Positions 177-11,587 of a stretch of DNA of 64,000 bases are shown piece after piece (the stretch's first letter is position 1; the number at the start of each line of letters is the position of its first letter). A program made the translations under genes and the position numbers. The DNA is from Candidatus Lustribacter sp. (GTDB taxonomy: Bacteria > Vulcanimicrobiota > Vulcanimicrobiia > Vulcanimicrobiales > Vulcanimicrobiaceae). Location: the NCBI GenBank assembly GCA_965277805.1, contig OZ255842.1, positions 3,616,001-3,680,000 of the forward strand. Reading direction: 5' to 3'. Under the pieces are notes generated by a model that saw only the letters and a list, made by a program, of their open reading frames with translations, was not told the origin of the DNA and did not search any database.

Positions 177-1601
177 CTACGTTTCGCGCAGGCGCGAGTG
201 ACGGTAACCGTAGGCCGCGTACACGCCGACGCCGACGAGAAACCACACGACGAAGCGGATCCAAGTCAGCGTGCCGAGACCCGTCATCACGAGCAGGCAC
301 AGGATCGCGCCGAGCGCCGCGGTGACGAGTCCGAAGGGCGCGCGAAAGGGCCGCACCGCGTCCGGTTTGCGCAAGCGCAGCACGAACACGCCGATGCACA
401 CGATCGTGAACGCGGAGAGCGTGCCGACGTTGACCAGCGCCAGCAATTCCGCAATCGGCAGGATGCCGGCGAGGATCGCGACCAGCACGCCGGTCGTCAT
501 CGTCGTGATGATCGGCGTGCACGTGCGCGCGTCGACGCGGGCGACGATCGGCGGCAGCATGCGATCGCGCGCCATCACGAAGAAGATCCGGATCTGTCCG
601 AGCAGCGAGGTGAGCATCACGGTCGTCGTGCCGGCGAAGGCGCCCGCGAACACGACCGCATTCAGCCAACTCGCGTTGCCCGCATGATGCACGGCGTCGG
701 CCATCGCGGCGTTCGGGTCGACGGTTTTCCACGGCACGATGCCGACCGTGACGTAGGCCGCGAGCATATAGATCACGATGCCGATGATCAGCGACCAGAT
801 CACGGCCCGCGGCACGTCGCGCACGGGGTTCTTCGCCTCTTCCGATGCGACCGTCACCGTGTCGAAGCCGATGTAGGCGAAAAACACGAGCGCGGCGCCG
901 GCGATAATCCCGCTGCCGCCGAGCGGAAACGGCGGCATGAAATGCGCCGGCGAGACCGCCCCGAAGAGCGCCAGCACGAACACGATCAGCGCGATGATCT
1001 GAATGCCGACGAAGAGCGTGTTGGTGCGCGTCGATTCGCGAATCCCGATCGCGAGCAGCGCCGAAATACCGAGCACGGCGAGAATCGCCAGCAGATCGAT
1101 CGACGAGTGCGCGAAGTCGATTCCACCCGGCGCGAATACGACGTGCGCGACTTGCAGCGCGGGCGGCAGCGTGATGTGAAACCCGGTGAGGAAACTTTGC
1201 ACCGAGCCCGACCAGGCGGCGGCAGTCGGCGCAACGCTGATGCCGTACTCGAGGATCAAATCCCAGCCGATGATCCAAGCGACGAATTCACCGAGCGTAG
1301 CGTAGGCGTAGGTGTAGGCGCTGCCCGCGATCGGGACCATCGCTGCGAGTTCCGCATAGCACAGCGCGACGAAGATGCAGGCGACGCCGGTGAGTGCGAA
1401 TGACGCCAGCACGCCGCCGGCACCGGCCGCCTGCGCGCCGGAACCGATCGTCGTGAAGATGCCGCCGAGCATCGTGCCGAGGCCGACGCCGATCAGCCCC
1501 GCCACGCCGAGCGCGCGGCGCAGCGGAACGCCGCCTTCGCCGCCGGAGGGCGAGATGCGATCGTACGGCTGCGTCGCGGCGAGCCGCTGCCATACGTTCA
1601 C
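177..1601 (-). CDS. APC-family amino acid permease (YfnA/YhdG-like)
   Basis: LRRALG..GLGTMLGGIF, YAELAAMVPIAGSAYTY, FFAYIGFD, EEAKNP motifs; many hydrophobic segments. Confidence 0.9.
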   Translation of the reverse strand: MNVWQRLAATQPYDRISPSGGEGGVPLRRALGVAGLIGVGLGTMLGGIFTTIGSGAQAAGAGGVLASFALTGVACIFVALCYAELAAMVPIAGSAYTYAYATLGEFVAWIIGWDLILEYGISVAPTAAAWSGSVQSFLTGFHITLPPALQVAHVVFAPGGIDFAHSSIDLLAILAVLGISALLAIGIRESTRTNTLFVGIQIIALIVFVLALFGAVSPAHFMPPFPLGGSGIIAGAALVFFAYIGFDTVTVASEEAKNPVRDVPRAVIWSLIIGIVIYMLAAYVTVGIVPWKTVDPNAAMADAVHHAGNASWLNAVVFAGAFAGTTTVMLTSLLGQIRIFFVMARDRMLPPIVARVDARTCTPIITTMTTGVLVAILAGILPIAELLALVNVGTLSAFTIVCIGVFVLRLRKPDAVRPFRAPFGLVTAALGAILCLLVMTGLGTLTWIRFVVWFLVGVGVYAAYGYRHSRLRET

Positions 1602-2509
1602 GAAGCGGCGAGGTTCACGACGCGCGGGCGCAGCTTCAACTCGATCAGCACGCGTTCGTAGTCGGCCGCCGTGACTTCAGCCCACGTTTTTCCGAGCAGC
1701 GCGAGCAGTGCCGCCTCGACGACGTTCGTGCCGAACGAGCGGCCGTCGAAATCGGGCGTCGTCGTGACCAGCATCGCGACGCCGCGCGTGCGCAGCTCTT
1801 CGACGTCGTTGGCGGTGAGGGTATTGGTCAGCACCATCTTGCCGTCGAGCCGGTCTGGCATGTACTGCCGCATGAAGTGGAAGTCGCCGGCGATGATATC
1901 GGCGTCGTCGTAGTATTCGGGATACTTGGGCTCGGGCTTGCGGTCTTGCTTCTTGCCGGTGGGATAGAAGAACTGAAACGGCAGCTTGCAGGCATCGGGC
2001 AGATACTTGCGCGCCATCTCTTCAAATTCATCGAGGCCGCGCACCGGCCGGTCGAGATCGAGCGCGAAGATGAAATCTCCGAAGATCATGTCGGCCCCGG
2101 CCGCCACCAAGGCCTGCGCCATTCCGAACCGGTCGAGCGCGCTGACCATCAGCACGCGCTTCCCGCCGAGCTCCATCCCGAGTTCACGCTGCAGATACTC
2201 CACCGCTTCGCGCTCGAGCGTATTCTTGAGCCCGCTACCGTCGACCACCGGCGTCTTCTTCACCGCATTCAACAGCCGCAGCCCGTCTTTCAACGCGAAC
2301 CGCTGCGTGCCGGCATACAAATACACATCGATCCCGCCGAGCCCGATCGCATCGACCGTCCCATCCAACTCGCGCAACCGCTTGAGCGCGCGATCGATGC
2401 TCCCGTCCATCCCCTCCCGAGAAATAGCAAACTGCTCCCCCAACAACTCCACCATCGCCCGATGATCCCGCGACGAAGACCCGAGACTAACCGAAACAAT
2501 CGTCTTCAT
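1598..2509 (-). CDS. Conserved protein of unknown function (family often auto-annotated 'quinate 5-dehydrogenase')
   Basis: 303 aa, VSVSLGSSSRDH, GLGGID, VVDGSGLKNTLE, GRSFGTNVVEA; stop overlaps permease start. Confidence 0.7.
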   Translation of the reverse strand: MKTIVSVSLGSSSRDHRAMVELLGEQFAISREGMDGSIDRALKRLRELDGTVDAIGLGGIDVYLYAGTQRFALKDGLRLLNAVKKTPVVDGSGLKNTLEREAVEYLQRELGMELGGKRVLMVSALDRFGMAQALVAAGADMIFGDFIFALDLDRPVRGLDEFEEMARKYLPDACKLPFQFFYPTGKKQDRKPEPKYPEYYDDADIIAGDFHFMRQYMPDRLDGKMVLTNTLTANDVEELRTRGVAMLVTTTPDFDGRSFGTNVVEAALLALLGKTWAEVTAADYERVLIELKLRPRVVNLAAS

Positions 2510-2513
2510 TCCA

Positions 2514-2544
2514 TGTCATCCCGAGCTTGTCGAGGGACCGCCAC
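2514..2544 (+). repeat. REP-like dispersed repeat, copy 1
   Basis: TGTCATCCCGAGCTTGTCGAGGGACCGCCAC, identical to 40410-40440. Confidence 0.9.
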
Positions 2545-2549
2545 AATCT

Positions 2550-3659
2550 TCATCGTGTTGCCGCTTTTCGGGCGTCGGCGGCGGCGCGGGTGGCGGCGAT
2601 GCTTTCGGGGGAGATGACTTTGTCGAAGGCTCGCATGTCGGCGAGTTCGAAGCCGGCGCGGGCGGCGAGGGTATCGATTTCGCGGACTTTTTCGAGATTG
2701 ACGCCGCGTCCGACGGTGTAGGATTCGCAGCGGTTTTCGAGTGCGAGAACCATCGTTTCCGACATGCATGCAAGCGCGGTACCGGGTGATAGCGCGAGGT
2801 CGAAGTCGGTGCCGGGTTCGCGCACGCGTTCGGCCCGGAACGAACCCGGGACGCGCATGTTGCCGCCTTCGACGACCAGCACGTCGGGCCGCTCGAGTGC
2901 AACGCGGCGGCTCACATCGTGTGGCAGCGAAACCTCGCACACGACCGCGCCCGGGCGCAAATTCTCAGGCTCAATCACGTCCTGCGTAGACGATGTCGCG
3001 GTCAAGATGAGGTCTGATTCGCGCAACGCGGCGGCAAGATCGACCGTGTAGCGTAATTCGCACTTCACCCGCGGCTGCAAATCGGCCACGAGTGCCTTCA
3101 ATCGCGTCTCGTTTCGGGCGACACAAATCACCGTGTGGACGCGGTCCCCGATCAATTGCACGCAGGCCGCGCCGATCGACCCGGTCGCTCCCACTACAAC
3201 GGCCGTCGACGTTGCAACATCGATGCCCATCTCATCGGCGCCACGAAAGAGCCCGCGCACGGCCGCCGCGATCGTCAGCGAATTCCCGGTCGTCACCGGA
3301 ATCGGCGAACGTTCGGCAATCGTCACGCCGCCGTCACCGACGACGCCGGTAAAGGCACCGAGGCCGGCCACCTTCGCGCCAAGCGATACGCCCACGTCGA
3401 TCGCCGCGAGTATCCGCGCATACACATCATCGCGCGGAAACGCGAGCATCTGCTCCGGGAGCAAGGGCGCGGCAACGAACCAGCCTTCGGTTTCGCGCCC
3501 ATCCGGGGTTCGTATCCCGGTGAGGTGAGCCGCCGCATAGGCCGGCATCCACTCCAGGATCTTGGCCACGATCGGCTTCCCCTTGCCGGCCGCGCCCGGC
3601 TCGTAGCGGATCACGTCCTCGAACGACAGGGGATGGATAACGAAACAGAACGGGACCAT
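2550..3659 (-). CDS. Acyl-ACP/acyl-CoA reductase-like NAD(P)-dependent oxidoreductase (cyanobacterial AAR-like)
   Basis: LGAFTGVV, VTTGNSLT, VVVGATGSIG, ACMSETMVLALE..SYTVGR parallel AAR motifs LGGFTSI, TTGNTHT, VVGATGDIG, ACFAEAMLLEFE..FSWGR. Confidence 0.75.
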   Translation of the reverse strand: MVPFCFVIHPLSFEDVIRYEPGAAGKGKPIVAKILEWMPAYAAAHLTGIRTPDGRETEGWFVAAPLLPEQMLAFPRDDVYARILAAIDVGVSLGAKVAGLGAFTGVVGDGGVTIAERSPIPVTTGNSLTIAAAVRGLFRGADEMGIDVATSTAVVVGATGSIGAACVQLIGDRVHTVICVARNETRLKALVADLQPRVKCELRYTVDLAAALRESDLILTATSSTQDVIEPENLRPGAVVCEVSLPHDVSRRVALERPDVLVVEGGNMRVPGSFRAERVREPGTDFDLALSPGTALACMSETMVLALENRCESYTVGRGVNLEKVREIDTLAARAGFELADMRAFDKVISPESIAATRAAADARKAATR

Positions 3660-3671
3660 GCCCGGCTAGTC

Positions 3672-4133
3672 TTAGCGAACGACGCGCCGCGCCCTAGCCG
3701 ACGTTTCCGCCTCTGCCTTGAGCGCGGCCAGCATCATCTCGGCGTTTTCGCGGACTTTTTTCTCCAGGGTCGGGCCGATCAGTTCGGCTAAGGTCGGCAC
3801 GCCGAAGTCGTAGGTTACGTCGAGCGTGACCAGCGTGCCGGCGGGGTCGGAGACGAACGTCCAGGCGCCTTCGAAGGTGTCGAGGTCGCCTTCGAGCAGT
3901 TTGTAGTCGATGCGCAGCGCGGCGTCATCGAAGCGGTCTTCTTCGAGCCACTCGATCGGCGCGTCTTCGATCAGCGTTTTCCAGCGCGTCAGCACGCGGT
4001 CATCGTGGCGCTCGACGACCGTCACCGATTCGACGTCGGGCATGAACTGCGGAAAGCGTTCCTGATCCTTGGCGAGTTCGTAAATCAGCGCGGCGGGCGC
4101 GTCGATCACGATCGAGGTGGCTACGTAGGGCAC
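3672..4133 (-). CDS. SRPBCC/START-fold (polyketide cyclase/CoQ10-like) ligand-binding protein
   Basis: 153 aa; IDAPAALIYELAKDQERFPQFMPDV, GDLDTFEGAWTF. Confidence 0.85.
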   Translation of the reverse strand: MPYVATSIVIDAPAALIYELAKDQERFPQFMPDVESVTVVERHDDRVLTRWKTLIEDAPIEWLEEDRFDDAALRIDYKLLEGDLDTFEGAWTFVSDPAGTLVTLDVTYDFGVPTLAELIGPTLEKKVRENAEMMLAALKAEAETSARARRVVR

Positions 4134-5395
4134 GCGAGAACTCCGAGACGTTCGACTGCCACCGCGACGGCTTCATCGAACGCCCGCAGCGCCGTCGCGA
4201 TTTGCGTCGCATCGACGATCAACGGGGGCTCGAGGCGGATCACACGCTGCTGGTTCAGCGTCCAAGCCGCCGTGACGCCACGCTTGAGCAGTTCGGGGAT
4301 GATCGTACCGCCATACCCTTCGTTGCGCAGTTCGACACCAACCAGCAATCCGACGCCGCGGACATCGGCGATGACATCCTGGTAATTTGCTGCGATCTCG
4401 CGTGCGCCGGCCAGCAGTTCGGCGCCGCGCGCCCGCGCGTTGGCGGCGAGGTCATCCTCAACCAGCACGTCGAGTGCAGCGAGCGCCGCCGCACAGGCTA
4501 GCGGGTTCCCACCGAAGGTGGAGGTGTGCAGTAGCGGGTCCTTCGCGTAGGCCGCGTTCCACACGGCCGGGCGCGCGACGTACGCGCCGATGGGCATCAC
4601 GCCACCGGATAGCCCTTTGGCGAGCGTCATCACGTCGGGTACGACGCCGGCCAGATCGCAGGCGAAGAGCGCACCGCAGCGGCCGAGGCCGGTCTGCACT
4701 TCATCGGCGATAAAAACCGCGCCCGACCGGTCGCACAACTCGCGGACGCCGCGCAGATACGCGGGCGGCGGGACGTTGACGCCGCCCTCGCCTTGCACGG
4801 GTTCGACGATCACGGCCGCCGCATCGTCGACCAGTGCCGCGAGCGCCGCGAGATCGCCGAACGGCGCGTGCACCACATCGGCGAGCAGCGGCGCGAACGG
4901 CGCGCGGAACGCGTCGCGTCCGCTGACCGACAGCGCGCCGAACGTCTTGCCATGAAACGCGCCGTGCGTACCGACGAGCTTCGTACGCTTCGTCGCGGCG
5001 CGCGCGAGCTTGAGCGCGCCCTCGACCGCTTCCGTTCCGCTATTGGCAAAAAACGAAATCTTCAAATCGCCCGGCGTCAGCTCGGCGAGCCGTTTCGCCA
5101 AGCGTCCCAAGAGCGGGTTGAACATCGTGCGGCCCGACAGCGCCATTTCATCGAGCTGCGCGCGCACCGCCGCGACGACGCGCGGATGGCGATAACCCAC
5201 CGTGAACACGCCGTACCCGCCGGCGAAATCGAGGTAACGTTTGCCGTTGTGATCGACGATCGTCACGCCCTGCGCCGACACTTCGACCGGGCTGCCGGAG
5301 AGCTTCATCACCCGCGCGAGCGGCGGGTTTACGTATTCGCGATAATTCTCGTACGTCTCGTCGTAAAGAGCCTGCGCGTCAGCGCCGTCGGTCAC
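4121..5395 (-). CDS. Class III PLP aminotransferase (omega-transaminase, putrescine/acetylornithine-type)
   Basis: NSGTEAVEGALK, FHGKT, FIADEVQTGLGRCG, TLAKGLSGG, HTSTFGGNP; GTG start at 5395 overlaps dusB stop (GTGA). Confidence 0.9.
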   Translation of the reverse strand: MTDGADAQALYDETYENYREYVNPPLARVMKLSGSPVEVSAQGVTIVDHNGKRYLDFAGGYGVFTVGYRHPRVVAAVRAQLDEMALSGRTMFNPLLGRLAKRLAELTPGDLKISFFANSGTEAVEGALKLARAATKRTKLVGTHGAFHGKTFGALSVSGRDAFRAPFAPLLADVVHAPFGDLAALAALVDDAAAVIVEPVQGEGGVNVPPPAYLRGVRELCDRSGAVFIADEVQTGLGRCGALFACDLAGVVPDVMTLAKGLSGGVMPIGAYVARPAVWNAAYAKDPLLHTSTFGGNPLACAAALAALDVLVEDDLAANARARGAELLAGAREIAANYQDVIADVRGVGLLVGVELRNEGYGGTIIPELLKRGVTAAWTLNQQRVIRLEPPLIVDATQIATALRAFDEAVAVAVERLGVLACPT

Positions 5396-6408
5396 GACGC
5401 GACGGCGAATTCGCGCGGCGGCGCTTCGAGCGTGAGGATCGTCTCGGCCACGATGCGCAGCGTCTCGGCCGCGGTTTCCGTACGCATCAAGCGTTCGCGC
5501 AGCGCGCTCGCGCCGGGGAACCCTTTGAGGTAGTAGCCCAAGTGCTTGCGCATCTGCGGCACCGCGCGCGCTTCGCCCCACTCCTCGACCATCGCGTGAT
5601 AGTGGCGCACGGCAAAACGCAGTCGCTCCGGCGCGTTCGGAATGGCGTCGGGCTCGCGGCCTTCCATCAGCGCGCGCAGTTGGCCGACGAGCCAAGGATT
5701 GCCGAGCGTCGCACGGCCGAGCATCACGCCGTCGACGCCGCTCGCGCGCATCTTCGCAAACGCATCGCGCGCATCGGCGAGATCGCCGTTGCCGATGACC
5801 GGAATGTCGACCGCGCGTTTGAGCGCCGCAATGTGGTCCCAATCGGCCGAGCCTTTGTAGAACTGCTTCGCGGTACGCGCGTGCAGCGTCACGGCTTTGA
5901 TGCCGACGGCTTGCGCGCGCTTCGCGACTTCGACGTAAACGAGATCCGTCTCGCTCCAGCCCAGGCGCATCTTCATCGTGACCGGACAATCGACGGCCCC
6001 GACGACCGCACGCATGATCGCCTCGCAGCGGTCGACGTCGCGCAAGCAAGCACTGCCGCCTTCGGTCTTCGTCACCTTCGGCGCCGGGCAGCCGAAGTTG
6101 ATGTCGACGATGTCGGCGCCGCACTCGCGCACGAGCTTCGCGGCCTGCGTCATGATCGAGGGATCGTTCCCCCACAACTGCGTCGAGACAGGACGCTCTA
6201 CGCCGTGCTGGTCGATCATGTCCATCGTGCGTTCGTTCTTGTACTGCAGCGCGTTCGACGAGACGAATTCCGTGACGGTCAAACCGAAGCCGAACGGCTT
6301 GTAGAGGGCGCGCAGCGTCCGGTTCGTCACCCCGGACATCGGGGCAAGAACGATGGGTGGCCAGATGCTGATCGAGCCGATCTCGAGCGGCTTTACGGTG
6401 GGCGTCAC
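5392..6408 (-). CDS. dusB: tRNA-dihydrouridine synthase B
   Basis: LAPMSGVT, DINFGCP, TLHART, VIGNGD, MLGRA; start set at GTG 6408. Confidence 0.9.
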   Translation of the reverse strand: MTPTVKPLEIGSISIWPPIVLAPMSGVTNRTLRALYKPFGFGLTVTEFVSSNALQYKNERTMDMIDQHGVERPVSTQLWGNDPSIMTQAAKLVRECGADIVDINFGCPAPKVTKTEGGSACLRDVDRCEAIMRAVVGAVDCPVTMKMRLGWSETDLVYVEVAKRAQAVGIKAVTLHARTAKQFYKGSADWDHIAALKRAVDIPVIGNGDLADARDAFAKMRASGVDGVMLGRATLGNPWLVGQLRALMEGREPDAIPNAPERLRFAVRHYHAMVEEWGEARAVPQMRKHLGYYLKGFPGASALRERLMRTETAAETLRIVAETILTLEAPPREFAVAS

Positions 6409-6416
6409 AAGAGCGG

Positions 6417-6425
6417 ATTGTATCA
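6417..6425 (-). promoter_or_regulatory. Putative extended -10 (TGaTACAAT) of a leaderless dusB transcript
   Basis: Minus strand reads ggtgTGaTACAATccgctcttGTG; 8 nt to GTG; no SD. Confidence 0.5.
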
Positions 6426-6448
6426 CACCGAGGGCGTACGGCGCGAAC

Positions 6449-7090
6449 GTGAGCGATTCGCCGAATCCGCCGACCCTGCTGAGCCTCATCGTGGCGTTCG
6501 CGAACATCGGACTCACCAGCGTCGGCGGCGCCGGCGGCCCCCTGCGCTACGTCGTCGTCAAGCAGCGCCGCTGGCTCTCCGAAGGCGCGCTGGCCGAACT
6601 TTTCGGCGTCGCGCAGGCACTGCCGGGCGCGACGGCCGTCAACATCGCGGTGATGTTCAGCGACCGTGCAGTGGGCCCGCTCGGTCCGCTCGCAGCGCTC
6701 TTCGGCCTGATCGTTCCCTCGCTGATCATCGCGATCGCCCTGGCCGGCATTGCCACGCAACTCGCGGCGGTCAACTACCGTTTCGCGGCAGCCGAAGTCG
6801 GCGTGACCGCGGCCGTCGCCGGCATCTTTATCTCCAACGGCTTCCGCGTCATGGGTCAGCTGTGGAGCGAAACGCCCGACCTCCAGCTCGTGTGGCGTAG
6901 CTCCCGCGTCGCGATCAGCGCGCTCGGCATCGTCATGGTCGCCGGTTTCCACATCTTCATCCCGTTGACGATGGTGGTACTCGTAACGCTCAGCCTGCTG
7001 CTGGAATGGCGCATCCCCCGTAATCCCGAGCTTGTCGAGGGACCGCCACCCGTCGACCCCATCGACCCGATCGACGAGAAGCAGTCATGA
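6449..7090 (+). CDS. chrA: Short-chain chromate transporter (CHR) subunit 1
   Basis: IGLTSVGGAGG, AQALPGATAVN; GTG start at 6449. Confidence 0.8.
   Translation: MSDSPNPPTLLSLIVAFANIGLTSVGGAGGPLRYVVVKQRRWLSEGALAELFGVAQALPGATAVNIAVMFSDRAVGPLGPLAALFGLIVPSLIIAIALAGIATQLAAVNYRFAAAEVGVTAAVAGIFISNGFRVMGQLWSETPDLQLVWRSSRVAISALGIVMVAGFHIFIPLTMVVLVTLSLLLEWRIPRNPELVEGPPPVDPIDPIDEKQS
7019..7050 (+). repeat. REP-like repeat, copy 2, in-frame inside chrA 3' end
   Basis: cgtaATCCCGAGCTTGTCGAGGGACCGCCACC encodes RNPELVEGPPP. Confidence 0.85.
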
Positions 7091-7617
7091 TCGGTGAGCT
7101 ACAGCAACTCTGGACGCTAGCGCTGCACTTCGCGCTGATCTCGTTCTTCGCAGTCGGCGGCGGCGTCAGCATGCTCGTCCCGCAGATGCATGCGGAGTTC
7201 GTTCAACAATTCCACTGGCTCAGCGAACGCTCGTTCCTCGAATTGCTCGCGGTCGCGCAAGCCGCGCCGGGCCCGAACTTCCTCTTGGTGCCGCTGATCG
7301 GCTATCGCGTCGCCGGCTGGCCCGGCGCCATCGTCAGCATCACCGGGTTCCTGATTTTCCCGGTCATCATCTCGTTTTGCGTCGGACGCATCTTACATCA
7401 GCACGAAAACGAATGGATCGTCCGCTTCCGCCGCGGCTTCCGCCCCGTCACCGGCGGTCTCTGGATCGCCTCGGGCCTCGTCGTCGCCGCTACCGTCGAC
7501 CACAGCCCCGTCCCCATCATCGTCACCGTCGCCGTCGCCATCATCTCGGTCATCATCGACATCAGCCCGATCTGGTGGTGCATCATCGCCGGCGTCGCCG
7601 GCTACGCACTCGCATAA
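7087..7617 (+). CDS. chrA: Short-chain chromate transporter (CHR) subunit 2
   Basis: SFFAVGGG, AQAAPGPNF, IGYRVAGWPGA; ATGA overlap with subunit 1. Confidence 0.85.
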   Translation: MIGELQQLWTLALHFALISFFAVGGGVSMLVPQMHAEFVQQFHWLSERSFLELLAVAQAAPGPNFLLVPLIGYRVAGWPGAIVSITGFLIFPVIISFCVGRILHQHENEWIVRFRRGFRPVTGGLWIASGLVVAATVDHSPVPIIVTVAVAIISVIIDISPIWWCIIAGVAGYALA

Positions 7618-9199: not shown

Positions 9200-10473
9200 C
9201 GCGGCACCAGCGTCTTCGTCGCGTCGCGCCAACCCGTCTTGTAGTCGACGCTGTCGGGGATGATCGCCGAGATGACGGCGATATCGCTCATGTCGTTGTC
9301 GGCCTCGCTGCGCACGACGTGCGGCGGCGTTTCGCCCTTCTGCACGCCGCGAATCGCATCGATGATGAGGCGGCGCGCGGTGGTAATGCAGACGTCGCTT
9401 GTGGCCAGATGCTCGCGCGTGCGGTCGTGAATCGGGCCCGGCGATTCGGTCGCGAAGGCGTCTTGCGCGGGAAAGTACGGCCCCATGCCGCTGAACGTCT
9501 TGGTCTTCATCTCATCGCGATCTTGGAGATAGCGATTCGCGGCGTTGCGCACGAGGAAGCCGTCGGGACGGATTTCGCCCGCCATCGTGGCTTCGCTGAA
9601 CTCTTTGTTCGGCGCGTGGTGGCGGTTGAAGACGTAGTCGATGCGCATGTGCGTTACGTCGTCCACCGGCACGTGCCAGTGCGCGCTGTAGCCCTCGCCG
9701 ATGCGGCCCTCGTTGCCGATGATCGCGGCCATGTGCGGCAAGATGTAGTTCGTGATGCGAAGGTAGCGCTTGTCGGGCCCGGCGCGCCGCACCGAGAAGT
9801 TGCGCATCCCGTAGTGCGTCTTCTCGACCTCGAGTTTCGGCGCCGAATCGACCTTGTAGAGCTGATCGGCCGGCACGCTGCCGCCCGGAACGGGCCGCGT
9901 GTCGACCTTCCCGATCGGCACGTGCAGATAGGAGAGATGCGAGGGATCGATCTCGCCTTCGAGCGACTGCAGCCAGTTGCAGTTAAGGAACGTGCGGGTG
10001 AGCAGCCGGTGCTCCTCGCCGTAGCTGAAGAACTCGTAGTTGGGCAAGAGCGGCGGATCGTCCGTGCCCAAATACGCGAAGATCAGGCCGCCGCGCTCTT
10101 CGCACGGATAGGCGAGATGGCGCACTTTGTCTTTGTACGTGCTCTCGGGCGGCTCGGCCGGCATCTCGAGCACGCGGCCCGCGATGTCGTAGAGCCAACC
10201 GTGGTAGAGACAGCGCAAACCGCCGTTTTCGACGCGCCCGTAGCTCAGATCGGTGCAGCGATGCGCACACAACAGGCCGAGCAACCCCGCCCGGCCGGCA
10301 TCGTCGCGGAAGAGCACCAGATCCTCGCTGAGGATGCGGACCGGTTTGGGGGCGCCGCCGGGCGGCAGTTCCGATGTGAGCGCGATCGGATGCCAGTACT
10401 TGCGCATGAACGCGCCGCCCGGCGTGCCGGGGCCGGTCTGCGTGACGAGATCGTTTTCTTCTTTGGTCAGCAT
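9196..10473 (-). CDS. Rieske non-heme iron oxygenase alpha subunit (phthalate 4,5-dioxygenase/LigXa-like)
   Basis: CAHR...CLYHGW Rieske motif; EGEIDPSHLSYLH iron site; GPGTPGG N-terminus. Confidence 0.9.
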   Translation of the reverse strand: MLTKEENDLVTQTGPGTPGGAFMRKYWHPIALTSELPPGGAPKPVRILSEDLVLFRDDAGRAGLLGLLCAHRCTDLSYGRVENGGLRCLYHGWLYDIAGRVLEMPAEPPESTYKDKVRHLAYPCEERGGLIFAYLGTDDPPLLPNYEFFSYGEEHRLLTRTFLNCNWLQSLEGEIDPSHLSYLHVPIGKVDTRPVPGGSVPADQLYKVDSAPKLEVEKTHYGMRNFSVRRAGPDKRYLRITNYILPHMAAIIGNEGRIGEGYSAHWHVPVDDVTHMRIDYVFNRHHAPNKEFSEATMAGEIRPDGFLVRNAANRYLQDRDEMKTKTFSGMGPYFPAQDAFATESPGPIHDRTREHLATSDVCITTARRLIIDAIRGVQKGETPPHVVRSEADNDMSDIAVISAIIPDSVDYKTGWRDATKTLVPR

Positions 10474-10474
10474 G

Positions 10475-11587
10475 TTACACGGCCGCCGCGGCGAGCATGG
10501 CGCGCGATTTCGCGATGCGCGGGAACATGCGCAGCGGGTTGTCGTGCACGATCGCGATCTTGTCTTCGGTGGTGAGCCAGTCGTAGCTGTCAATCAGCGC
10601 CAGCACGTCGTCGGCCGCGGCCTGCGTTTCGGGATTGAAGATATCCGAGCCGCTGCCGGGGACCTCGGTGCCGAACACCATCCGGTTGACGCCGCGCTGC
10701 TTGATCACCGCGCCGAGGAAGTGCGGATCGTAACAGCACGTATCGAAGAACAGGTTGTTCGTGACGTCGACTTTCTTCTTTTTGGGCGCCGCCTTTTTCG
10801 CGATGCCGACGCTGCCGCCGGTCTCTTCACCGCTATCGGTCGCGATCGTGTCTTCGCCGTGCGACTGCTTGACGTAGTCGACCGGTTTGCCTTTGTAGAG
10901 GAAACGGTTGAGCGCGCCGCCGCAGTGGCAGATCACGATGCGCAGCTTCGGATAGCGCGCAAACACGTCGCTCTGCTCGAGCAAGAGCGTCGCGAGCCAC
11001 TCTTCCTTGACGTTGTTGTATTGATAGGAGTGCGGCAGAATCTCGAAGCGCGGGTCTTTCGAGATCGAGGGATGCACGACCAGCGTCATGTCGAGTGCTT
11101 CGGCGCTTTCATACAGCGCGAACCAGTACGGATCGTTCATGCCGGGCGTGAGGCCGTCGGCGCCGGGATCGGGGTTGACCGTTGCGCCGACGAAGCCCAT
11201 GTTCGCGCAGCGTTCGAGTTCTTCGACACAGTTGTCGCTATCGCGGTCGCGGCTCTGCGGCAGCTGCGCGATGCCGACGAAGCGGTCGCCCCAGATCTCG
11301 CACTGCGAATTGATGATGTCGTTGGTGACGCGGGTCCACGGCTCCACCAGATACGGGCTCTCCCAGTGCATCATCGCAACCGGACGCGGGGAGATCATCT
11401 GCACGTCGATGTTGTGCGAATCGAGCATCCGCAAATGTCGGTCGATCGGCCCCTTCATCTGCTGCTCGGAGAGCATCAGTTCGTCTCCCGGCGTGCGCAG
11501 TGCGATCAAGTTGTACGCATATGCGCGAAACTGCGGCGGCGTCGACATATGGCCGTGGCAGTCGATGACTTTCTTGCCGTGAAACAT
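10475..11587 (-). CDS. Amidohydrolase_2 family hydratase/decarboxylase (LigJ-like)
   Basis: IDCHGH, ISPRP, VNPDPG, HCGG, FDTCCY, FGTEVPGS; SD GAGGAG. Confidence 0.75.
   Translation of the reverse strand: MFHGKKVIDCHGHMSTPPQFRAYAYNLIALRTPGDELMLSEQQMKGPIDRHLRMLDSHNIDVQMISPRPVAMMHWESPYLVEPWTRVTNDIINSQCEIWGDRFVGIAQLPQSRDRDSDNCVEELERCANMGFVGATVNPDPGADGLTPGMNDPYWFALYESAEALDMTLVVHPSISKDPRFEILPHSYQYNNVKEEWLATLLLEQSDVFARYPKLRIVICHCGGALNRFLYKGKPVDYVKQSHGEDTIATDSGEETGGSVGIAKKAAPKKKKVDVTNNLFFDTCCYDPHFLGAVIKQRGVNRMVFGTEVPGSGSDIFNPETQAAADDVLALIDSYDWLTTEDKIAIVHDNPLRMFPRIAKSRAMLAAAAV

Follow-up and report, generated by a model that had tools for sequence, protein, structure and literature searches.

A conserved four-gene run of Eremiobacterota as a candidate fatty-amine pathway for membrane lipids

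The stretch of DNA analysed here (the window, 64,000 nucleotides) is taken from contig OZ255842.1 of Candidatus Lustribacter sp., a member of the phylum Eremiobacterota (Vulcanimicrobiota, WPS-2). Near its start, a run of closely spaced minus-strand genes encodes, downstream of dusB, a class III (omega) transaminase (TA), a small SRPBCC/START-like protein, a reductase related both to acyl-ACP (acyl carrier protein) reductase (AAR) and to PigE (AAR-like), and a protein of 303 residues designated X303 (Table 1). The initial annotation, which was made from the letters of the window, proposed these four genes as a split pathway for fatty amines, and the run beside dusB on which it relied is borne out by the listing of open reading frames and by family scans. 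The best reading of the four genes is a split, primary-metabolism version of the reaction pair of PigE and TamH, accompanied by two accessory proteins.

The genes are packed tightly. The overlap is 4 nt between dusB and the TA gene and 13 nt between the TA and SRPBCC genes, whereas gaps of 12 nt and 40 nt separate the SRPBCC gene from the reductase gene and the latter from the X303 gene, which itself overlaps the following permease gene by 4 nt. The open frame of the TA extends upstream as far as 6952; the GTG at 5395, which overlaps the dusB stop, was chosen as its start. A search for terminator-like sites on the minus strand of 1598-6516 found none. The first gene of this run, dusB, is context and lies outside the claimed pathway.

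Table 1. Genes of the minus-strand run of the window, and TA-AAR-like fusions of relatives, with the matches that identify them
Feature	Coordinates	Strand	Identification
Class III (omega) transaminase (TA)	4121-5395	-	Aminotran_3 4.5e-108 (Pfam)
SRPBCC/START-like small protein	3672-4133	-	Polyketide_cyc 7.9e-20 (Pfam)
AAR/PigE-type reductase (AAR-like)	2550-3659	-	Shikimate_DH NAD-binding domain only, 1e-09 (Pfam)
X303, 303 aa	1598-2509	-	no Pfam/NCBIfam match
dusB	5392-6516	-	Dus 3.5e-89 (Pfam); TIGR00737 357 bits vs cut-off 293.3
APC-family amino-acid permease	177-1601	-	AA_permease_2 2.9e-39 (Pfam)
TA-AAR-like fusions	L243:4169-6895; L244:2647-5346; L242:3149-6313		family scans

Two of the four proteins correspond to the two halves of PigE. 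Against the NCBIfam PigE model (NF053554), the reductase matches the N-terminal half (199.1 bits, E 1.3e-58, positions 48-355 of 837) and the TA the C-terminal half (423.2 bits, positions 372-733 of 837); both scores lie under the whole-protein cut-off of 850 because the model describes the fused protein. The model of cyanobacterial AAR (TIGR04058) also finds the reductase, with 81.6 bits and an E-value of 6.3e-23, its cut-off of 449.7 not being reached, and the matches among PDB sequences include PigE 4ppm (7.8e-36), AAR 6jzq (7.8e-18), and the carmabin terminal amidation domain (TAD) 9e4x (7e-07). The annotation had recognized motifs of acyl-ACP reductase, with ACMSE in the place of ACFAE, and this segment is confirmed in the phmmer alignments, in which ALACMSE of the window's enzyme is aligned with FACFAE of 6jzq and with GCMAE of PigE 4ppm. 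On the comparison with AAR models and structures that had been suggested as a check, the catalytic cysteine aligns with C294 of AAR and the GxxGxxG motif is kept, the score for the PigE half being the higher one (199 bits). Across 41 relatives, Cys298 and glycines G157, G160, and G163 of the reductase are invariant.

The names given to these families in the databases point elsewhere: by them, 2550-3659 would be a shikimate dehydrogenase and X303, whose family is labelled 'quinate 5-dehydrogenase', an enzyme of that kind. This is hardly credible at all. AroE models give the reductase only 19-21 bits against cut-offs of 248-295, so it does not group with shikimate dehydrogenases, no shikimate-binding N-terminal domain is reported by Pfam, and the conserved columns of X303 are devoid of a Rossmann glycine motif. 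The hemA model also recognizes the reductase (1e-10). A role as replacement for glutamyl-tRNA reductase was nevertheless ruled out, since canonical hemA occurs twice elsewhere in the genome.

The class III transaminase and the SRPBCC protein named in the annotation are both confirmed by the Pfam matches of Table 1; scored in bits, the SRPBCC protein reaches 71.8 against PF03364 (Polyketide_cyc), above the gathering cut-off of 23.4. Within its genome, the TA is the top match to the transaminase half of PigE (412.8 bits, the runner-up having 266.7). Its best single-domain model is that of putrescine aminotransferase (NF008570), and this match leads to another view of the locus, in which an activated amino or dicarboxylic acid would be turned via a semialdehyde into a diamine, a polyamine, or an amino acid, with APC permeases moving the substrate or the product. 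The two such permeases that follow the genes fit a small polar substrate, as does the kinship of the reductase family with glutamyl-tRNA reductase, the partner of a class III enzyme (hemA 1e-10; PMC8341465). However, the putrescine aminotransferase model stays at 469.2 bits, short of the 612 set as its cut-off, most relatives lack the permeases at their loci, and canonical hemA genes exist elsewhere. Moreover, the recurrent companions of these genes are an SRPBCC protein with a lipid-type pocket, a PlsY-like membrane domain, and a 4HBT thioesterase, all of which makes a small polar substrate decidedly improbable. In keeping with the annotation, aldehyde-deformylating oxygenase (ADO) was not found: a scan of the whole genome (95% complete) with its model, TIGR04059, gave no match.

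The fourth protein, X303, has no match in Pfam, in NCBIfam, or among PDB sequences, and its family comprises 924 representative clusters at 50% identity (E<=0.001). The nearest solved folds are those of AAR and TAD, and the protein is of two-domain alpha/beta type. Profile-profile comparison of X303 with the reductase family detected no sequence similarity, and the conserved columns of X303 contain no cysteine and no glycine-rich loop; it is for these reasons that X303 is treated here as an AAR-shaped protein lacking the AAR active site, and not as a demonstrated AAR homologue. Its association with the reductase is shown by fusion and by co-occurrence. Natural X303-AAR-like fusions are found in three representative proteins (P0142, P0185, and P0254), and among 151 genomes sampled from the phylum to which Moorella thermoacetica belongs, counts from which are not phylogenetically independent, 103 encode both proteins, 14 only X303, one only an AAR-like protein, and 33 neither. 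The annotation had listed 1598-2509 as an uncharacterized partner in the pathway, and these fusions and counts bear out the partnership.

Other relatives of X303 show further arrangements. P0159 (762 aa) consists of an Aminotran_1_2 domain (1.9e-36) fused to a C-terminal X303, and is a second kind of pyridoxal phosphate (PLP) enzyme tied to this family; its first domain is read as a class I/II aminotransferase fold of the oxoamine-synthase type. Neomoorella carbonis and Moorella mulderi encode an X303 paralogue of 282 aa with about 40% identity and no adjoining AAR-like gene (L156:9022-9870 and L164:3239-4087), and in the first of these loci, L156, bioD and bioA appear, by reading of the sequences, a few kb upstream of this short paralogue. 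A tblastn search of plasmids with X303 gave no match.

In Eremiobacterota, the four genes are nearly universal. An AAR-like gene is present in 148/151 genomes (147/150 without the unpublished G128), and in a sample of 61 genomes SRPBCC and TA were each found in all 61 and X303 in 60, the single miss being an assembly of 300 contigs. They are core genes and not a strain-specific cassette, and their arrangement is no accident. All four are contiguous in deep lineages of the phylum, as exemplified by contig 1 of G048 (X303 2285-3184, AAR-like 3232-4269, SRPBCC 4278-4712, and TA 4722-5957). In many close relatives, unrelated genes of the opposite strand, spanning about 2 kb, separate the SRPBCC gene from the AAR-like gene (for instance L014:3272-5000), and the operon is thus broken in those lineages. 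This same locus carries between AAR-like and X303 a small gene whose product is read as OsmC-like (L014:6240-6717).

The Moorella-phylum sample displays a wider variety of arrangements. X303 is encoded in 117 of the 151 genomes and an AAR-like protein in 104. With the Heliobacterium copy as reference and E<=1e-95 as threshold, 76 have an orthologue of the TA, and 71 of these are also AAR-like-positive. Open frames of some 870-1080 aa contain an AAR-like domain in 18 genomes, and the three such frames that were scanned all combine an N-terminal class III TA with a C-terminal AAR-like domain (about 900 aa; Table 1), the domain order of TamH. The Cys motif is kept in the one that was aligned (L243); the reductase domain of this fusion has a long insertion in its Rossmann part relative to the window's enzyme. 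In two further genomes (G318 and G359), the TA gene lies immediately upstream of a stand-alone AAR-like gene, and in the tree these reductases group with the stand-alone ones of Heliobacterium and Moorella (support 87/75). The SRPBCC gene occurs in 16 genomes, all of them TA-positive, and is immediately downstream of the TA gene in 15; Halonatronum saccharophilum and Heliobacterium mobile have such an adjacent TA-SRPBCC pair. This variety, with the genes split but clustered or lying in two pairs, TA adjacent or fused to the reductase, and X303 fused to the reductase, is a stronger argument for joint work of the proteins than the counts themselves.

One Bacillota genome (G366) illustrates what a secondary-metabolite version of these enzymes looks like. 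An 844-aa reductase-TA protein encoded there was rejected as a fusion of the module and left out of the counts: it is a true PigE (1348.7 bits, cut-off 850) and its gene directly follows a PigD-like gene (468 bits). This PigD-PigE pair (L245:175-4115) is of the prodigiosin-MAP type and is found here outside Proteobacteria and Actinobacteria; the genome additionally carries an X303/AAR-like pair and a TA-SRPBCC pair. Since PigE is the best family match of the window's enzymes, and a true PigD-PigE pair exists in one Bacillota genome, the genes could be thought to form a cassette of the prodigiosin-MAP or tambjamine kind. Such a cassette is very improbable, given that whole phyla have them as core genes, that their neighbourhood is a housekeeping one, that no PigD, PigB, or ANL-ACP gene stands beside them in the window, and that the true PigE domain forms a separate long branch of the tree (4.2).

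Deinococcota present another fusion. When the AAR model was run on 14 named control genomes, it matched only those of Synechococcus elongatus, Thermus thermophilus, and Deinococcus radiodurans. In Thermaceae, a 559-aa protein carries the reductase at its C-terminus, behind an N-terminal domain of the G3P_acyltransf (PlsY) family (6.3e-26). This PlsY-like/AAR-like fusion occurs in 81/81 sampled Deinococcota; 80 have it at full length and one has it in pieces. X303 is encoded in 79 of these 81 genomes, unlinked to the fusion gene. Stand-alone PlsY genes, which co-exist with the fusion, score 170-175 bits, whereas the fused domain scores 86-102; it was therefore rejected as the housekeeping PlsY and regarded as a diverged paralogue. 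An identical set of 18 out of 41 genomes encodes both a TA orthologue (380-426 bits, 48-52% identity) and SRPBCC. In these genomes, identity of the fusion protein to the Thermaceae query is 62% or more, and they are read as Thermales-like; the other 23, with 49-58% identity, are read as Deinococcales-like. A 4HBT thioesterase gene is directly upstream of the TA gene in a Thermus-like complete genome, in which X303 is followed by efp, accB, and accC. In Thermaceae, an SDR gene comes after the fusion gene, with a hexapeptide-repeat transferase gene between them in one genome (L230:6936-8603; L219:3145-3909); these two enzymes may possibly carry out further steps of the same pathway. Glutamate-dehydrogenase genes, assigned by Pfam on the two genes of L239, are directly upstream of X303 in two of the three Deinococcales-like genomes examined (G174 and G218; L239:7457-11218 and L232:5835-11995), and in L232 the genes after X303 are read as efp and a biotin carboxylase gene.

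The uneven spread of the four genes speaks for a different product. The reductase and X303 could make aldehydes for fatty alcohols, ether lipids, or long-chain diols, with the TA and SRPBCC as an optional side branch or unrelated. The X303/AAR-like pair is indeed far wider than TA-SRPBCC in the Moorella-phylum sample, where SRPBCC reaches 16 and TA 76 of the 151 genomes; neither TA nor SRPBCC was found in 23/41 Deinococcota, and most X303/AAR-like pairs of Bacillota have no TA nearby. By contrast, at least 20 genomes have the TA fused to, or beside, a reductase of this very family, 71 of the 76 genomes with a TA also encode an AAR-like protein, one tight four-gene run persists across deep Eremiobacterota lineages, and no ADO was found. 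Another end product made from the aldehydes is thus considered unlikely, and the reading in which an acyl donor is converted to a fatty aldehyde and then to a primary fatty amine for membrane lipids is held as probable, with considerable reserve. All the computational checks put forward in the initial annotation turned out in favour of its fatty-amine proposal, and its choice of TamH as the model gives way to PigE, which is the closer sequence match and has the reductase-TA order.

The motifs, fusions, adjacencies, and co-occurrences reported above suggest a sequence of steps, for which the chemistry, the chain length, the donor, and the eventual use of the amine are predicted. Cys298 of the AAR-like reductase would accept a fatty acyl group from an activated donor, and the resulting thioester would be reduced to a fatty aldehyde at the expense of NAD(P)H. 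The donor may be acyl-ACP, if AAR and TamH are taken as the analogues, or possibly acyl-phosphate, given the PlsY-like fusion of Deinococcota. The class III TA would then convert the aldehyde to a primary long-chain amine, as its homology to PigE and TamH, the adjacency of the genes, and their fusion suggest. For the SRPBCC protein, a role in holding or handing over the hydrophobic aldehyde or amine is proposed, and X303 may act as a subunit or as a substrate-presenting partner of the reductase. Judging from the organisms that carry the genes, the amine would be used in membrane lipids of the N-glyceroyl alkylamine phosphoglycolipid type.

Organisms with such lipids are found among the carriers of these genes. 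Lipids of this kind are reportedly dominant in several Bacillota, to go by the title of a study by Bale et al. from 2025. Phosphoglycolipids of Thermus and Deinococcus contain alkylamine, for the synthesis of which a 2022 paper offers only a probable pathway and names no amine genes (PMC9636437). Moorella thermoacetica is listed with N-glyceroyl alkylamines as well (Table 1 of PMC13274423); its locus reads dusB, a helix-turn-helix gene, X303, and AAR-like, and the TA gene lies elsewhere in its genome. For Vulcanimicrobium alpinus, the sole cultured member of Eremiobacterota, only unidentified polar lipids and glycolipids are reported (PMC9758169). Co-occurrence with alkylamine producers, which the annotation had put forward as a check, gives a positive answer for the reductase, an AAR-family protein being present in T. 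thermophilus, in D. radiodurans, in 81/81 Deinococcota, and in M. thermoacetica. X303 accompanies the producers as well; as a caveat, searches of Deinococcales-like genomes for TA and SRPBCC came out empty. The literature that was searched holds no paper assigning genes to alkylamine synthesis, although papers outside the searched library may do so. In the Streptomyces tambjamine pathway, unrelated stand-alone enzymes perform the same two steps, according to a preprint (bioRxiv 10.1101/2025.08.11.669332).

A tentative and more doubtful extension is that the module supplies the alkylamine branch, long missing, of N-glyceroyl alkylamine phosphoglycolipid synthesis, with consequences for several lineages. 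Fatty-amine membranes would then reach well past Deinococcota, being built also by Eremiobacterota, Armatimonadota, and most relatives of Moorella. X303 would represent a novel type of subunit, AAR-shaped but without an active site and required by the reductase. The PlsY-like domain fused to the reductase of Deinococcota would handle acyl-phosphate and feed the reductase or, in a bolder version, would N-acylate the new amine from a glyceroyl phosphate donor. The module provides concrete candidates for knock-out in Thermus thermophilus and Deinococcus radiodurans, a testable role for the X303 family, which currently has no Pfam or NCBIfam model, and a prediction of unusual membrane chemistry for the barely cultured Eremiobacterota. 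Stand-alone reductases, transaminases, and carrier proteins from thermophiles are also of interest for fatty-amine biocatalysis.

A number of observations weigh against the assignment of the four genes to fatty-amine synthesis. Every activity step is a prediction, and the match of genes to phenotype rests on few named organisms. Two members of the reductase family (L056:2567-3631 and P0254) have serine for the catalytic cysteine; P0254 has a cysteine two residues after the position of the missing one. The genomes of the Moorella-phylum sample are not independent, and among them neither kind of TA was found, at the threshold used, in 15 of the 104 AAR-like-positive ones, while the 14 with X303 and no AAR-like gene separate X303 from its presumed partner; in most Bacillota the TA gene is not beside X303/AAR-like. 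In the 23 Deinococcales-like genomes no orthologue of TA or SRPBCC turned up, and a search of five of these with a Thermus-type TA query gave no orthologue either. Deinococcus nevertheless makes alkylamines, which leaves two options: a different transaminase acts in these organisms, or the partner of the reductase is not this TA. In the tree, the PlsY-fused reductases of Deinococcota are on a long branch (3.38), so that a function shared with the window's enzyme is not assured. Finally, the frame from dusB to greA-lysS, described below, is a housekeeping neighbourhood and does not point to lipids.

This neighbourhood was examined by clustering the neighbours of 91 loci outside Eremiobacterota, with family names confirmed on representatives. 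X303 is present in 83 of these loci and AAR-like in 51, followed by GreA (37), a class II synthetase (32), DusB (28), a small helix-turn-helix protein (26), and type III pantothenate kinase (25). The usual order in Bacillota and Armatimonadota is dusB, the helix-turn-helix gene, X303, AAR-like, greA, and the synthetase gene. The APC permease of the window is also context, a lineage-specific insertion outside the conserved unit: it has no match at E<=1e-6 among the listed non-Eremiobacterota loci and none at E<=1e-10 in several Eremiobacterota loci (for instance L038-L041), and in the gut-type locus L102 the permease is absent and X303 is directly adjoined by greA-lysS. Of the two permeases announced in the annotation, one is whole in the window. 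The second would sit past the window's start and is seen, by Pfam, in a near-identical relative (L003, at 9337-10644), in which the next genes are greA and one for a class II aminoacyl-tRNA synthetase. On the other side of the run, two adjoining half-size chromate-transporter (CHR) genes are divergent from dusB, at 6353-7090 and 7087-7617 on the plus strand of the window (Chromate_transp 2.6e-20 and 2.1e-33).

Among known systems, PigE (NF053554; 4ppm) is the closest. In it, a class III TA comes after an AAR-type thioester reductase domain, and both halves are matched by proteins of the window. The proposed order of its reactions, from thioester to aldehyde to amine, is also the same, and PigE was shown to be necessary if a thioester mimic is to be reduced and transaminated (PMC8341465). 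However, PigE is a single 837-aa protein that works with PigD and PigB on a 3-acetyloctanoyl thioester and belongs to a pigment cluster. Instead of a fused protein of at least 850 bits, the window has two separate ones, of 199.1 and 423.2 bits, whose genes are parted by the SRPBCC gene, joined by X303, and neighboured by dusB and an APC permease gene instead of PigD and PigB; they are core genes of whole phyla.

TamH likewise unites a class III TA with a reductase domain classed as AAR; it binds PLP, aminates C7-C14 aldehydes, and was shown experimentally to convert, together with TamA, C12 acyl-ACP to dodecylamine (PMC9594044). The fusions of about 900 aa in Bacillota, TA at the N-terminus and AAR-like at the C-terminus, share its domain order. 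The likeness to TamH is drawn from its published domains and not from sequence, and TamH differs in being fused, in needing a dedicated ANL-ACP protein, TamA, and in belonging to a natural-product cluster; none of the six genes of the window's run is TamA-like, the search not having been extended to the genome. Cyanobacterial AAR (TIGR04058; 6jzq), which works with ADO, shares with the window's reductase the catalytic cysteine and the NAD(P)H glycine motif. Here, by contrast, the downstream enzyme is a transaminase, ADO is missing, and the score is below the cut-off. TAD (9e4s/9e4x), the putative terminal amidation domain in carmabin biosynthesis, differs as a domain of a nonribosomal peptide synthetase/polyketide synthase assembly line (10.1101/2024.10.28.620694). 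In the GluTR-GSAM pair (HemA-HemL), as in the proposed pathway, a Cys-dependent NADPH reductase hands an aldehyde to a class III PLP enzyme, an analogy drawn from PMC8341465, and the substrate of that pair is Glu-tRNA. The two-step chemistry is thus known already from PigE and TamH. What is new in the genes described here is the split form, kept by whole phyla as a core set and placed among housekeeping genes, together with the constant partners SRPBCC and X303, the PlsY-like fusion of Deinococcota, and the link to alkylamine lipids.

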